This document shows, piece by piece, positions 1 to 8,475 of a stretch of 13,795 nucleotides of DNA. The notes beneath the pieces are model-generated. The model was not told the origin of the DNA and did no database searches. It worked only from the letters and a program-made list of their open reading frames with translations. The DNA lies in IMG/VR virus record IMGVR_UViG_2529292889_000013; one strand, 5' to 3'. The first letter of the stretch is position 1. Each line of letters starts with the position of its first letter. The translations under genes were made by a program, and so were the position numbers. The DNA comes from a virus (taxonomy: Duplodnaviria; Heunggongvirae; Uroviricota; Caudoviricetes).

Positions 1-1074
1 TCATTTGTTGATTTCAATTTTGTCCCATTCTCTCCCTCGGCTGTCCCTATACTGCGCCGCCATTGAATCTGATTTATGTCCGAGAAGACGTTGAGCAAAC
101 TTATCGCCAATCTGATTGCGGTATAGTCTCGCCGACAGGCTACGCAGTTCATGGAATGTTGGCGGGTCTCCATCAAATGAGAGTCCAGATGCATTTCTCG
201 CCTTTGTAAAATACTTCGATACTGTTTTCGGGGAAAGTGGTTCGTGATGCGTTGATGCAATTATAGTGTCACTGCCGCTGGCCTCCCTGCATTTCTGTAG
301 TATATCAGCCAATGAGATATTGAGCGCGTCAATCGTTAGCGTCAGCGGAATGGCGAGCTTAGCCCCTGTTTTACCCTGTTCAATGTGAAGATGGTTGTCG
401 TTTATGTCTGACCATTTCATTTTGCACAAATCGCCGACTCTCTGACCTGTAACGACGGCCAAATCCATCGCAAGCCTCAGCCAGATTGGGAGAGGTTCGG
501 CTGCATGGTGAATCGCGACATACTCATTAGCTGTCAGCCTTGAGCGCCTTACTTCTGACTTTGCTGTGCGGGTTACTGTTACCGGATTCGTAGCCACATG
601 CCCCTCGGCTATTGCCTCACGAAAAACGTCAACAAGGGTTGACCTGATTAATTTTGCGGAAGCCGTTTTACCTTCTGCTACGTAGGTGTTTAGCATTGCT
701 GCCACCTCTTTCGTTGATATGTCAGCGAGCGGTTTGTCCGGCAATTTTCTTCGGATTGCCCTGATTTTGCTGGCGTAGTCGAGTAGAGTTTTCGGCCTGA
801 TACCCCTCTCGCTGAGGATTGTTTCATATCGGTCAAGCCACGCATGAAGAGTGATTGCGTCAGCGCCTTTAATTCTGTCTATCAGTGACTCACGCCTGCT
901 CCCGGATAGCAACTCAATATTGGCCTGTATTGCTTCAGTGATTGCTATCCTCCTGTCTCGGCCTAATCCAAACTCTTTACCCGTCCTTGGGTCCCTGTAG
1001 CAGTAATATCCATTGTTTCTTATATAAAGGTTAGGGGGTAAATCCCGGCGCTCATGACTTCGCCTTCTTCCCAT
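1..1074 (-). CDS. int: Lambda-type phage integrase (tyrosine recombinase), complete
   Basis: 357-aa ORF. N-terminus MGRRRSHERRDLPPNLYIRNNGYYCYRDPRTGKEFGLGRDRR and C-terminal HELRSLSARLY...LLGHKSD...AAQYRD...REWDKIEI match lambda Int as I remember it. ATG at 1072-1074 overlaps the xis stop, as in lambda. Confidence 0.95.
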   Translation of the reverse strand: MGRRRSHERRDLPPNLYIRNNGYYCYRDPRTGKEFGLGRDRRIAITEAIQANIELLSGSRRESLIDRIKGADAITLHAWLDRYETILSERGIRPKTLLDYASKIRAIRRKLPDKPLADISTKEVAAMLNTYVAEGKTASAKLIRSTLVDVFREAIAEGHVATNPVTVTRTAKSEVRRSRLTANEYVAIHHAAEPLPIWLRLAMDLAVVTGQRVGDLCKMKWSDINDNHLHIEQGKTGAKLAIPLTLTIDALNISLADILQKCREASGSDTIIASTHHEPLSPKTVSKYFTKARNASGLSFDGDPPTFHELRSLSARLYRNQIGDKFAQRLLGHKSDSMAAQYRDSRGREWDKIEINK

Positions 1075-1360: not shown

Positions 1361-1660
1361 TTATTCGATGCGCACTCCTGGTATTTCGCCTTTTGATATT
1401 GCTAAGTCATAAATTTGCGCGGCACTATACCCATCTCGCATCCATGAATCTAAGGCGCGAACAGCCTCGCTACGCTTTTTATCTTCTCTCTCATTTTTGA
1501 TATCAACGAGGACATCAACGCAATTAAGGCAAATGTGGATTTTGTCCTTACATTCGATCATGGCGGCTTTGCCATGATTTCCGCCACACAGTGAGCATAA
1601 ATCTTCAGGGGCTGGCTGGTATTTCTGTAACGTTAGAGGGTTGAATGTTGAACAGGCCAT
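1361..1660 (-). CDS. Hypothetical Cys-rich (zinc-ribbon-like) protein, 99 aa
   Basis: ORF with a CxxC ... C ... CxxC cluster (CSLCGG...IECKDKIHICLNC). Start chosen at the third ATG (MACSTF, 1658-1660), which sits 6 nt after a GGAG; the upstream ATGs lack an SD. No family recognised. Confidence 0.55.
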   Translation of the reverse strand: MACSTFNPLTLQKYQPAPEDLCSLCGGNHGKAAMIECKDKIHICLNCVDVLVDIKNEREDKKRSEAVRALDSWMRDGYSAAQIYDLAISKGEIPGVRIE

Positions 1661-1664
1661 AATC

Positions 1665-1696
1665 ATCTCCATAAAACAAAACTCGCCGTAGCGAGT
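1665..1696 (-). terminator. Terminator-like or attenuator hairpin just upstream of the Zn-ribbon gene
   Basis: ACTCGC-CGTA-GCGAGT perfect 6-bp stem (1681-1696), followed on the minus strand by UUUUGUUUU that runs into the gene's RBS. Weak stem; function uncertain. Confidence 0.3.
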
Positions 1697-1855
1697 TCAG
1701 ATAAAAGAAATCCCCGCGAGTGCGAGGATAGTTATTCATTGTCGATATTTACATTTATTTCGAATATCTTTACTGGGTAATCGCCAAAGTCATATGTTTT
1801 TTATTCTGTTTTATAAGCACTACCAAGTACTGCTTATTACAAATAAGAAAAGGCT

Positions 1856-1886
1856 GAAAAAATATTTAAGGCCACAACTGTGGCCC
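1856..1886 (-). terminator. Putative intrinsic terminator for the secreted-protein gene
   Basis: Perfect inverted repeat GGCCACA/TGTGGCC (1870-1885) about 10 nt past the TAA at 1896-1898, followed on the minus strand by U-rich UUAAAUAUUUUUU. Confidence 0.55.
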
Positions 1887-1895
1887 TAAATTTAC

Positions 1896-2594
1896 TTACG
1901 GCACTGCGTTAATCAGATTACAAATACCTCTTTTGGCAGGGTCTGAATTCAACTTCTGAAAATTGGCGTTCAACATAGCCGTGTGTAAGTGATTCTCAAC
2001 CTCAAAGAATAAGTCGATTTTGCCCTCTTTGGCTGCCTGTTTCTTCCAAATATTCACTTGGTCATCAGCAATACGACTGGCGCAAGTGAACAAGAACGAA
2101 CTGCCTCTAGGAATGGATGTCGTGCTGTAATACTCACCATCTACTTCTACATATTTAGCTCGGAATGACTCTAAGGTTAGCTCATTGCCGTTCTTGACCG
2201 ACTTAGCTTCTGCCTTACTTGTTTCTTCCTGCTCTTCAGAATGTTTCTGCGCCGACGTGGGTATGTCATTGGCCGCTGTTACGCTGACTGAACTCCCCAA
2301 ACCTTTGAGGCCATTAATTTGGATAAGATAAGCCAGCTCCAGAGCCTTATTATCAGTGAGTTTTCCACGCATATTTACCCACTGACGTTGAACCATTTTT
2401 AGGGTGTCTGCGTTCTCTGGGTTTCCTTTGAGGGCACTAGAATAGGCAGAGCTAAGCTGTTCGTCTAATTTTGACAGACGTTCGTTATCGCAGATTTTAT
2501 GTTCGATTGCTGTCGAAGCCTTTTGGCAGTCAAAGCTGGCTGCAAATGCACCCGGCGATGCCACTAACAATGATGCCAGTAGGATATTTTTCAT
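1896..2594 (-). CDS. Secreted protein with N-terminal DUF1311 / LprI-like (lysozyme-inhibitor-like) domain; self-contained cargo gene
   Basis: Start ATG at 2592-2594 (MKNILLASLLVASPGAFAAS...) with a GGAG 6 nt upstream; the ORF-track start 27 nt further up has no SD. Clear signal peptide, then a Cys-containing SFDCQKAS...HKICDNERL...LDEQL region that I recall as typical of DUF1311. Own terminator; 130-bp intergenic region upstream. Confidence 0.7.
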   Translation of the reverse strand: MKNILLASLLVASPGAFAASFDCQKASTAIEHKICDNERLSKLDEQLSSAYSSALKGNPENADTLKMVQRQWVNMRGKLTDNKALELAYLIQINGLKGLGSSVSVTAANDIPTSAQKHSEEQEETSKAEAKSVKNGNELTLESFRAKYVEVDGEYYSTTSIPRGSSFLFTCASRIADDQVNIWKKQAAKEGKIDLFFEVENHLHTAMLNANFQKLNSDPAKRGICNLINAVP

Positions 2595-2724
2595 ATTCAC
2601 TCCATAAATACAAAAGCGCATTACTATAGCACTTAACCGATCGCTTATCTCGCCCGTTCGTCATTCTTATCTAACCAGAACATGCGACTGCCACAGCACA
2701 TGTCGAGGATTGCTGCATGTCCAG

Positions 2725-3162
2725 TCACTGGTTGCCTCCTTTGCGAAGCTGGGCGGCTAACTCATCACATATGTGCGTCAAAGAGCAAAGTTTGATTGAT
2801 GGGTGTTCGCGCATCATCTCAACCCCCTGCGCCCGCACTTCAGACAGGAAAGAGTCGGTGGCTGGGGTTTCAACACGGATGCTGTCGCGCAAGATGAAAA
2901 ATGCATTGAGCATTCCAGTCTCTGGCACTTCATCCTGATGCTTCTCATACTCATCAAGAGCCTTCATCATCTCTGCTCCGAATGGTTGAGGGTGCACAGA
3001 CTTCAGCTCCGCATTCTCCGCCGCCAGCGCCGCGCACTTGGCCTCCGCTTCAGCAAATTTGCGTACCAGATATTCAGCATTTGTTTCGTTAACCTTTAAA
3101 TCACATGGGATGCATTTACCTTTCAGAAATCCATCCATCTCAATTAGTGTCATTCGTTTCAT
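2725..3162 (-). CDS. Hypothetical early-region protein, 145 aa, possibly Ead/Ea22-like
   Basis: ORF in the xis-ssb accessory interval. ATG at 3160-3162 overlaps the stop of the upstream 54-aa ORF (ATGA). The track start at 3180 is a GTG without SD. The Ea22 resemblance is a weak recollection. Confidence 0.6.
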
Positions 3163-3323
3163 TTCTTCCCACTCCGCCACATCGCATTCAGATATTTGTT
3201 TTGATTCACTGACGGAGAAGAATTTCTCTTAAGCAATTCCTCTCTCGATGGCATTGGCTTTACGCGTTGGCGAATAATCATTTCTGCCGGAAGAATGCCG
3301 GGATTGTATGCAAGTCCTCTCAT
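3159..3323 (-). CDS. Hypothetical small protein, 54 aa
   Basis: Internal ATG of the 104-aa track ORF, preceded by GAGGA with a 7-nt spacer. Its stop overlaps the next gene's ATG. The longer 104-aa form overlaps the well-supported 97-aa gene and was not adopted. Confidence 0.4.
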
Positions 3324-3640: not shown

Positions 3641-4147
3641 TTAAATTGCGTGAATAGCGTGACGAGGGAAGGGGAGAGTTACTGGTGCAAAGGGTATATC
3701 GTCGTCAAAATCCATCGGAGGTTCGTTGTGTTGTGCTGGTGATGATTGCTGCTGTGGCTTCTGTGATTGCCTGCTGGCTGCTTGTTGTTTGCTGTCGCCA
3801 ATGCCGCCAAGCATTTGCATCACGCCATTAATTCCGACATGAACCTCGGTTGTGTAACGGTCTTGCCCTGACTGGTCTTTCCACTTTCTGGTTCTCAGCA
3901 TTCCCTCGAAATAAATCTGATCACCTTTTTTCACATACTGCCCCACGACCTCAGCCAGTTTCCCGGATACAGCAACACGATGCCATTCAGTCAATTCCTT
4001 TTGCTCGCCAGTATTTTTATCTCGCCATTGTTCTGACGTGGCTATTGTCAGGTTAGCGAACGCTGTTCCTGATGGTGAGTATCGAACTTCCGGGTCTTGT
4101 CCTACCCGACCAAGGATAATCACCTTATTTATCCCGCGAGAACTCAT
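3641..4147 (-). CDS. ssb: Single-stranded DNA-binding protein
   Basis: OB-fold N-terminus ([20 protein letters not shown]...TEWHRV...[18 protein letters not shown]), Gln/Pro-rich linker and the acidic [11 protein letters not shown] motif. Start taken at ATG 4145-4147 (SD AGGTGGAG upstream); the track start is a GTG 9 nt further up. The ORF continues 15 codons past DDDIPF. Confidence 0.9.
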
Positions 4148-4611
4148 TTGCTCCACCTCTTGCCAGTTTTTATGTTGCTTATAATTGATTGAGATACACC
4201 CATGTCTTTTGCTATCTTGTACTGACTCTCTTTTTCAGAGAGTCTTTTCCTAATTTCTATAACCTGCCACTCTGTTAATTTTGCACCATGATGAGCATGA
4301 CCTTTCTTGGCTCCACGATGCCTTCCTTTTGCTATCTTGTCGTCCATGTTTTCTTGCGCGCTACCTAAAAAGAGATGTTCAGGATTAACGCAGCATGGGT
4401 TATCGCATTTGTGGCAAACCATCTTCCCAGATGGAATGGGGGAGTGATAAAGCTCAAAAGCAACCCGATGAGAAAGCATTGTTACGCCAAAGGCTACAAA
4501 TTTTGTGTATCCTCCTTTGTTTTTTGAATAGGTAGACTCCCAGCAACCTGTTGTTTCATTAACTTTGTAGCTGGACTCGAATCTTTTAATAATTCCGTCC
4601 AAGTGAGACAT
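4144..4611 (-). CDS. HNH homing-type endonuclease
   Basis: 155-aa ORF with a Cys/His cluster [19 protein letters not shown]...HHGAKL typical of phage HNH nucleases, and a C-terminal helix-turn-helix-like tail. The ORF abuts the SSAP stop and overlaps the ssb start. Confidence 0.8.
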
Positions 4612-7758: not shown

Positions 7759-8475
7759 TCAAACCAGCCTTAGTTTTGTCTCAATTGCAACGCCTATAAT
7801 CTTACAGTTTCCATTGATTGGCACGAGAGGCCATGCAGGGTTAAGTCCCTTGAGGTATTTATTTCCGCCGTCAATTATCAGCTTCTTGAATGTTGCTTCG
7901 TTAGAGTCAGAAAGTTTTGCTATGACCAAGCTGCCGTTGATCGCCTCCCTTCCGGTATCGAAAAGAACGAATGTTCCCTCTGGAATGCTTAACCCAACCG
8001 GTGCCGTCATTGAATCACCTTCCACTTTAAGCCAGAACGCATTACCTTGAATATGCGCGTCAGACTCAAGCCAAACATCTATGTCTTTAATGGTGTATGG
8101 TTCGCATGCTTCACACCACGAACCAGCCTGGATACTGCTTAACACCGGATACCTCTTTCCTGCTCTGTATTCCCCTGCATACCTTACGTTGGCATCGCTC
8201 TTAAGGCTTTCTGCCTGTTCTGCAACCTTGGCAGCAATTGACTGGCTAAAATCAGCAATTGAGACTTGCAACAATCGTGCAAAACCAGATGCAACCTCAA
8301 CGTTTAGCGCGTTTCTGCCATTAAGATAATGCCCTACCGCTCCTTGGGTGATACCCAGTTCATCAGCGATTGAGTATTGGGTTATTCCCAATTCTTTCTT
8401 TTTTGACTCATACAAAGCCTTAAGCCGCTTAGCGTCTTCGAGCTGTTCTGTCGTCAGTGATTTTTTATTTTCCAT
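7759..8475 (-). CDS. cI: CI repressor (HTH DNA-binding domain plus LexA/S24-like autocleavage domain)
   Basis: 238-aa ORF. N-terminal LTTEQLEDAKRLKALYESKKKELGITQYSIADELGITQGAVGHYLNGRNALN parallels lambda cI; C-terminal AFWLKVEGDSMTAP...FKKLI matches the S24 peptidase domain. Confidence 0.95.
   Translation of the reverse strand: MENKKSLTTEQLEDAKRLKALYESKKKELGITQYSIADELGITQGAVGHYLNGRNALNVEVASGFARLLQVSIADFSQSIAAKVAEQAESLKSDANVRYAGEYRAGKRYPVLSSIQAGSWCEACEPYTIKDIDVWLESDAHIQGNAFWLKVEGDSMTAPVGLSIPEGTFVLFDTGREAINGSLVIAKLSDSNEATFKKLIIDGGNKYLKGLNPAWPLVPINGNCKIIGVAIETKLRLV

Follow-up and report, generated by a model that had tools for sequence, protein, structure and literature searches.

What does a predicted secreted protein of the DUF1311/LprI family do for a lambdoid prophage, and how did its gene reach the early operon in which it now stands? 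The question is raised by positions 1,856 to 2,724 of a 13,795-nucleotide stretch (the window) from a tailed virus (Caudoviricetes; IMG/VR record IMGVR_UViG_2529292889_000013), which takes in the early region of a lambdoid prophage together with the part next to its integrase. Within the leftward early (pL) operon of this prophage, which is integrated beside torS, the gene stands at the distal end, and over the stretch searched, 1660-2760, the window is 100% identical to the prophage adjoining torS in E. coli A25. It is carried by a horizontally acquired cassette of about 0.85 kb (approximately 1791/1859-2643), made up of a leader of about 50 nt, the coding sequence (CDS) and a terminator, and it encodes a functional two-domain protein with a neutral tether. 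Reasoning by analogy with characterised relatives, we place at roughly 40% the probability that this protein acts in the periplasm against muralytic enzymes, or by binding peptidoglycan hydrolases, and thereby serves the phage both during infection and in the lysogenic state. RefSeq and PHROGs already list the gene, its domain family is a known one, and nothing in its features is unusual for an accessory gene of a prophage; its C-terminal domain is uncharacterised, and its acquisition history is clearly readable.

The gene and its signals are given below. SSU5 is a Salmonella phage-plasmid, unrelated to the lambdoid host prophage, that carries the same cassette, and P0040 is the most divergent close homologue.

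1896..2594, minus strand: CDS of 232 amino acids for a predicted secreted two-domain DUF1311/LprI-family protein (open reading frame and translation; RefSeq WP_000789829.1 in E. coli A25)
2600..2603, minus strand: Shine-Dalgarno sequence GGAG, 5 nt 5' of the ATG (read from the sequence; the same in SSU5 and in the P0040 context)
2541..2594, minus strand: predicted signal-peptide codons, residues 1-18, cleavage AFA/A (n-region K2, core and A-x-A site, without lipobox)
2295..2540, minus strand: N-terminal DUF1311/LprI domain, residues 19-100, helical, with Cys23 and Cys35
2184..2294, minus strand: disordered, indel-rich polar linker, residues 101-137 (low model confidence, indels, low conservation and substitution rates)
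1899..2183, minus strand: family-specific C-terminal domain, residues 138-232, with Cys171 and Cys225 (structure model, substitution rates and alignment)
1864..1891, minus strand: intrinsic terminator hairpin, with its U-run at about 1854-1863 (terminator scan and RNA fold)

The initial annotation had described a self-contained gene with its own Shine-Dalgarno sequence, a clear signal peptide, its own hairpin terminator and a 130-bp upstream spacing (2595..2724, up to the stop codon of an Ea22-like gene), and all of these are found where it had placed them; it had given no strand, which is minus. The CDS begins MKNILLASLLVASPGAFA, followed by the mature start ASFDC (cleavage AFA/A). Residues 1-18 have the features of a textbook Sec signal, with MKN, a hydrophobic core ILLASLLVA (Kyte-Doolittle 2.97) and then SPGAFA/A, the A-x-A site falling after residue 18. 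These features are kept in all homologues, down to 25% identity, and the homologue of Aeromonas phage 31 carries the annotation 'contains predicted signal peptide'. No lipobox is present, the cleavage context AFA/ASFDC being without L-x-x-C. The terminator starts 4 nt past the stop codon and consists of a 12-bp stem followed by six U (AUAUUUUUUCA); its RNA folds with a free energy (dG) of -17.6 kcal/mol (z = -5.74; 0/200 shuffles fold as well), and the hairpin is also present in SSU5. The ratio of nonsynonymous to synonymous substitution rates (dN/dS) is 0.13-0.17 over the whole CDS and 0.04-0.18 in the two folded domains (0.04-0.09 in the C-domain). In comparisons with the window sequence it is 0.07-0.12 in the folded domains as against 0.6-0.8 in the linker, which marks a real gene under selection.

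The predicted product is a soluble, Sec-exported protein of about 23.6 kDa, in which a helical DUF1311/LprI N-domain is joined by a floppy linker to a conserved C-domain that matches nothing described. The N-terminal assignment, proposed earlier by eye, is borne out by a Pfam search, in which residues 23-78 match PF07007 (LprI/DUF1311) with 25.3 bits against a gathering threshold of 22 (E = 2.1e-5), the match spanning only profile positions 1-70 of 106. PF07007 is also precomputed for most close homologues, the protein matches phrog_4675, a PHROG of unknown function, over its full length (E = 3.5e-94), and PGAP labels it 'lysozyme inhibitor LprI family protein'; a search of the literature turned up no paper that mentions the accession WP_000789829.1. 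An exhaustive phmmer search returned 5046 relatives, and most among the matches listed align to the N-domain (residues ~5-100). The family motif C..A....E..IC....L..LD..L...Y ... Q..W...R is present, with C35, E31 and Y51 invariant in both alignments (A4 and A8), D44, Q69, W72 and R76 invariant in alignment A4, and C23 nearly invariant. Cysteines 23, 35, 171 and 225, two per domain, are conserved in most members down to about 25% identity, as is N209 in the C-domain, where G153 is invariant in A4 and nearly so in A8.

Structure prediction with AlphaFold2 (AF2) from a diverse 10-sequence alignment gave an overall predicted local distance difference test score (pLDDT) of 72.6, whereas a model from 15 close homologues, at 48.5, was unusable. 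In the former, residues 22-100 are modelled as helical (pLDDT 83-90), residues 102-136 fall below 50, and residues 140-230 are predicted to form a short helix, a beta-hairpin and three helices, with pLDDT 84-94 over most of their length. The N-domain thus modelled has the small helical fold of the solved DUF1311 structure 3GI7 (the secreted P. putida protein PP0307), to which the window protein adds a disordered linker of about 35 residues and a conserved C-domain of about 95 residues without a family. For the C-domain there is no Pfam family and no PDB sequence match; Foldseek against PDB gave no match at E <= 0.001 and no specific fold match, and a word-indexed profile search returned only fragments from the same close family. 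NCBIfam matches to CpoB and to the A1S_1983 colistin-resistance protein were set aside as sub-threshold noise.

Proteins that carry the same N-terminal domain suggest what it may do. Etsi4, a DUF1311 protein, rescues the periplasmic toxicity of the cell-wall-targeting effector Etse4 of a type VI secretion system (T6SS) in a co-expression test (PMC12981562), and genes for LprI proteins with signal peptides either adjoin those for T6SS effectors of the lysozyme-like or transglycosylase kind or stand alone as orphan immunity genes (PMC9796082, PMC8867033, PMC12135965). ScwA (Salmonella SL1344_0490) is periplasmic, has two disulfides and controls the levels of the lytic transglycosylase MltD (PMC7933661). 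Taken together, the literature on T6SS immunity and on ScwA and MltD points to periplasmic contact with glycan-strand-cleaving enzymes as the common thread of LprI domains. The window protein resembles ScwA in being horizontally acquired in an enterobacterium, predicted to be a Sec-exported soluble periplasmic protein, equipped with LprI without an MliC domain, and provided with four cysteines; both genes have a GC content below that of the host genome. It differs in that the LprI domain of ScwA is C-terminal (residues 185-271 of 275) and its gene chromosomal (ybaP-copA) rather than phage-borne; what the two have in common in sequence is the DUF1311 domain, and the ScwA phenotype consists in altered levels of MltD and other peptidoglycan hydrolases, not in lysozyme resistance.

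By analogy, the DUF1311 domain of the window protein would bind, neutralise or modulate a glycan-strand-cleaving enzyme, either a lysozyme-like muramidase or a lytic transglycosylase, and the C-domain may supply specificity. Once in the periplasm, the cysteines probably form disulfides by oxidation, which have been demonstrated in ScwA, likewise an LprI-domain protein. The likeliest benefit would be that the infected or lysogenic cell is shielded from an outside muralytic enzyme, whether a superinfecting phage brings it as a tail lysozyme or a T6SS delivers it as a cell-wall effector; that the protein inhibits animal lysozyme appears less likely.

The distribution of homologues bears on whether such a function would belong to lysogeny. 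T4-like myoviruses of Aeromonas, Klebsiella and E. coli account for 150 of the 154 phage records with homologues, which argues against a lysogeny-specific role and weakens the proposal of lysogenic conversion made from the sequence earlier. The related two-domain proteins, at 25-38% identity, occur mostly in T4-like virulent phages; the Aeromonas and Klebsiella (Marfa) homologues examined retain both domains, and two metagenomic homologues lie on T4-like contigs. A single-protein scan of 185,579 species genomes gave one locus, on a Kluyvera contig of about 109 kb. Among the distant homologues, P0054 lies between oppositely oriented genes and P0078 has gaps of 250-500 bp on either side. The island around P0078, about 6 kb long (L011 1794-9378), splits a Mg-chelatase (comM-like) gene; on it are an EcoRV-type restriction-modification system with a C-protein-like helix-turn-helix gene, and two serine recombinases.

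In Aeromonas phage 31 and in L010, a metagenomic T4-like contig, the gene is found in the interval from primase gene 61 to dCTPase gene 56. In T4 this variable interval is the one with sp, the gene for Spackle. T4 Spackle (Sp, gene 61.3) acts in the periplasm, where it inhibits the gp5 tail lysozyme and thereby brings about superinfection exclusion (PMC7677548). The window protein, if exported as predicted, is likewise a small, early, Sec-exported phage protein, and the homologues of phage 31 and L010 share the 61-56 position; there is no detectable homology, and the analogy would be functional only.

How the gene arrived can be read from its flanks, where the following features were recognised.

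2725..3180, minus strand: Ea22-like early (pL operon) gene, upstream and co-oriented (PHROG 614/492; ev099 annotation ead/Ea22-like)
2645..2728, minus strand: 5' stub of a methyltransferase-like gene, 27 codons and a stop (tblastn, DNA alignment)
1859..2663, minus strand: segment shared with phage-plasmid SSU5 at 83.5% identity (blastn and three-way alignment)
1732..1788, minus strand: 3' stub, the last 19 codons of a gene like L0064 of 933W, forming the left-hand recombination scar (tblastn)

The right-hand stub has 90.6% identity over 32 aa (tblastn, E = 1.9e-17) to an intact 175-aa gene of the Stx2c phage EH0430, where that gene follows the Ea22-like gene (L018:2071-2598, minus strand) and encodes a protein with weak, sub-threshold Methyltransf_11/25 matches and a DPPH motif. 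The GTG of the stub overlaps the TGA of the Ea22-like gene (GTGA), with AGGAGG 6 nt upstream, and a short peptide may still be translated from it just upstream of the DUF1311 gene. On the left, a search with L0064 recovered its 19 terminal residues at 73.7% identity (tblastn, E = 6e-6), and DNA identity to 933W stops at 1790. The two remnants were also considered as the ends of one gene, which was ruled out, the proteins being unrelated (blastp E ~1). The three-way alignment places the actual right junction, where Stx2c-phage-like sequence switches to SSU5-like sequence, near 2640-2645. Gene stubs on both sides with an SSU5-like segment between them indicate entry by replacement recombination: the cassette replaced the body of the methyltransferase-like gene and the 5' part of the L0064-like gene and left one stub on each side.

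In HK542 the Ea22-like gene directly adjoins xis without a DUF1311 gene, 933W and EH0430 have other genes at this position, and ev099 is shared with the window over 1662-2865 and divergent on both sides. The segment is carried by 107 of 5426 complete E. coli genomes (coverage >= 80%), from animals and humans, two or more different lambdoid backgrounds being represented. A second copy of the terminator with its flank (window 1839-1896) occurs in SSU5-like phage-plasmids (L002 5995-6054 and L005 2679-2737), between an HD-phosphohydrolase gene and its upstream neighbour, and the element is a repeated intergenic terminator of the SSU5-like lineage; this second copy is consistent with an SSU5-type donor. 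Base composition gives no such signal, and a foreign origin argued from GC content was rejected: the CDS has 0.445 as against 0.466 for the window, with neighbouring genes ranging from 0.41 to 0.50.

Whether the cassette is expressed on its own or by read-through from pL depends on three further elements.

2623..2631, minus strand: candidate extended -10 element TGcTATAGT, with no good -35, 29-37 nt before the ATG (position weight matrix (PWM) scan and conservation)
1679..1729, minus strand: two more terminator-like hairpins with U-tracts, between the cassette and the L0063-like, xis and int genes (terminator scan and fold)
2471-2500, plus strand: antisense promoter-like site, TTGACA, 18 nt, TTTTAT (PWM rank 4 of 27,498)

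A promoter of the gene's own at TGcTATAGT is plausible from its sequence. In a crude PWM scan the element comes 16th among 27,498 positions, with a score that falls among those of the cI/cro control-region sites; it is kept in SSU5 (TGaTATAGT) and in the P0040 context, and there are 5 differences from SSU5 in the 47 nt leading up to the ATG, where about 20 would be expected at the synonymous rate (P ~1e-6). A terminator scan of the minus strand from 2595 to 3300 found none between the Ea22-like and DUF1311 genes, which means that pL read-through would transcribe the DUF1311 gene in any case. On induction, N-antiterminated read-through from pL would meet nothing in its way, while in the repressed prophage low-level transcription might start from the conserved extended -10, and the gene's own terminator together with the two further hairpins would keep that transcription out of xis/int. 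These tandem GC-rich hairpins (joint dG -24 kcal/mol, z = -6.45) directly precede the L0063-like gene, in a segment about 97% identical to 933W, and look like tandem terminators within the path from pL to xis/int. The antisense site, a strong one, is contained in the 5' part of the DUF1311 coding sequence and faces the Ea22-like gene; its conservation is uninformative because it overlaps highly conserved codons.

The autonomous layout proposed in the initial annotation therefore stands as to the Shine-Dalgarno sequence and the terminator; a promoter of its own is no more than plausible, with a negative strict promoter scan and unobstructed read-through. The upstream interval does have the length of 130 bp, but it is not a regulatory region as a whole, since about 84 nt of it are the methyltransferase stub, a recombination scar. 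The likeness to morons has to be qualified in the same way. Morons are defined in PMC3594210, with HK97 gp15 and lambda bor/lom as lambdoid examples, and by that definition the label fits by half. The gene shares with lambdoid morons that it is extra relative to related phages, as the comparison with HK542 brings out, that it has its own terminator and that its product is predicted to be directed to the envelope; it departs from them in its promoter, which is only a candidate, its undistinctive GC content, its place in an early left operon open to read-through, and its entry by a replacement that left stubs, as opposed to a clean insertion between intact genes.

Several results weigh against a periplasmic role exercised in lysogeny as well as infection. 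In none of the contexts examined does an effector, a lysozyme or any other muralytic gene lie next to it; the C-domain has no informative relative in sequence searches; a profile of the C-domain aligned with Marfa Spackle by hhalign gave a probability of 0.3% and E = 0.24, ruling it out as a Spackle homologue; and Klebsiella phage Marfa carries both Spackle (41-61 stretch, L016 1644-1925) and a 252-aa two-domain homologue (61-56 stretch, L016 4001-4759), so that the latter is not a simple Spackle replacement. Knockout of ScwA left lysozyme sensitivity unchanged with or without EDTA (PMC7933661). As to expression, a strict sigma-70 scan of the 130-bp gap found no promoter, extended -10 motifs number 8 in the window against a chance expectation of 11, the synonymous divergence of the signal-peptide codons is also low (0.15), so that recent recombination could account for the leader having diverged so little, and in SSU5-like elements and T4-like phages the gene lies 28-38 bp behind, or overlaps, a co-oriented upstream gene. 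The negative strict scan also favours the view that we have here an ordinary delayed-early gene of the 'ea' type, made only from pL during lytic growth and with a lytic role such as superinfection exclusion or lysis timing, presumably shared with its T4-like relatives, its moron look being a by-product of recombination. The same view gains from the upstream gap being mostly a gene stub, the missing terminator after the Ea22-like gene, the tight operon packing just mentioned, the preponderance of T4-like myoviruses among the phage records and the undistinctive GC content. It has more difficulty with the conservation of the extended -10 and leader in three contexts, including non-coding sequence, with the stand-alone position of P0054 and P0078, flanked by oppositely oriented genes or long gaps, and with the strong terminator right behind the stop codon, which is expected if transcription in the lysogen must stay out of xis/int. 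We regard it as possible, on balance doubtful.

Two further explanations keep the periplasmic location and change the adversary. An orphan T6SS immunity gene travelling on mobile elements would neutralise an injected lysozyme-like or transglycosylase effector and so confer an advantage in interbacterial competition. Immunity proteins combining a signal peptide with DUF1311 are described or predicted (Etsi4, which has been tested, the orphan genes of Pantoea, SED_RS06235/06230 of Salmonella Dublin and the neighbours of WHIX effectors), orphan copies among them, and one distant homologue of the window protein belongs to a small integrative island that also carries restriction-modification genes. 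However, no T6SS gene or effector adjoins any family member examined or occurs in the window, the two-domain architecture is largely restricted to phages, virulent ones included, and the additional C-domain is absent from the short T6SS immunity proteins, of which the S. Dublin example has 146 aa (PMC8867033); we hold this explanation to be distinctly improbable. Least credible to us, and very unlikely, is the view first taken of the gene, by which a periplasmic inhibitor of animal c-type lysozyme makes the lysogen more tolerant, in classical lysogenic conversion. The family takes its name from M. tuberculosis LprI, a reported lysozyme inhibitor as cited in PMC7933661 and PMC8867033, the window protein is predicted to be periplasmic, and the carriers are animal and human E. 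coli. Yet M. tuberculosis LprI (Rv1541c), which shares DUF1311, differs in being a lipoprotein with an MliC domain (PF09864), as PMC7933661 recounts, whereas the MliC/PliC domain PF09864 has no match here at E <= 1 with the whole protein or E <= 10 with the C-domain, and the C-domain is modelled as mainly helical and not as a beta-barrel. ScwA, the only tested protein with LprI and without MliC, was negative for lysozyme resistance in vivo (PMC7933661), which, with the missing MliC domain, leaves the lysozyme-inhibitor label weak. Most relatives, moreover, belong to virulent Aeromonas, Klebsiella and E. coli phages, where lysozyme tolerance has no obvious value. We therefore prefer the periplasmic anti-muralytic or hydrolase-binding role. 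A stronger version of it, unlikely as a whole, would make the two-domain DUF1311 and C-domain proteins an unrecognised, phage-specific periplasmic anti-muralytic class common to T4-like phages, lambdoid prophages and SSU5-type phage-plasmids, which would block the tail lysozyme or transglycosylase of superinfecting phages, or T6SS effectors, in the manner of Spackle though unrelated to it, the lambdoid copy having become a constitutive moron through the replacement that brought in the extended -10 and the terminator.

The surroundings are those of a lambdoid early region, in which two genes of the window are placed as follows.

1..1074: int
7759..8475: cI

The other genes of the window include xis, the L0063-like gene, the DUF1311 gene, the Ea22-like gene, DUF2737, abc2, ssb, an HNH endonuclease gene, a Rad52/Erf-type recombinase gene and replication genes. 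The L0063-like gene (1361-1672, minus strand) encodes a 103-aa protein of phrog_3680, function unknown, with a weak match to a ClpX-type C4 zinc finger (Pfam E = 0.015; NCBIfam ClpX N-terminus E = 0.002), and ev099 has a different 56-aa gene in its place. The HNH endonuclease gene (4144-4611, minus strand), between ssb and the Rad52/Erf-type recombinase gene, has the lowest GC content of the left-arm genes measured (0.408) and is probably a separate mobile insertion. An Rfam scan of the entire window found no known RNA, and PADLOC gave no match.

At the level of the locus, the cassette illustrates cleanly the way in which cargo comes to join the early operon of a lambdoid phage, here with a leader of about 50 nt and a terminator brought along and gene stubs left on both sides. 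It also counsels caution with names, as the database label 'lysozyme inhibitor LprI family protein' is no evidence for lysozyme inhibition. If the proposed role is correct, it would represent a second, structurally unrelated answer to the problem solved by Spackle, guarding the infected or lysogenic cell from incoming wall-cutting enzymes, and PHROG 4675 would gain a function, as would a gene that many T4-like phages carry.

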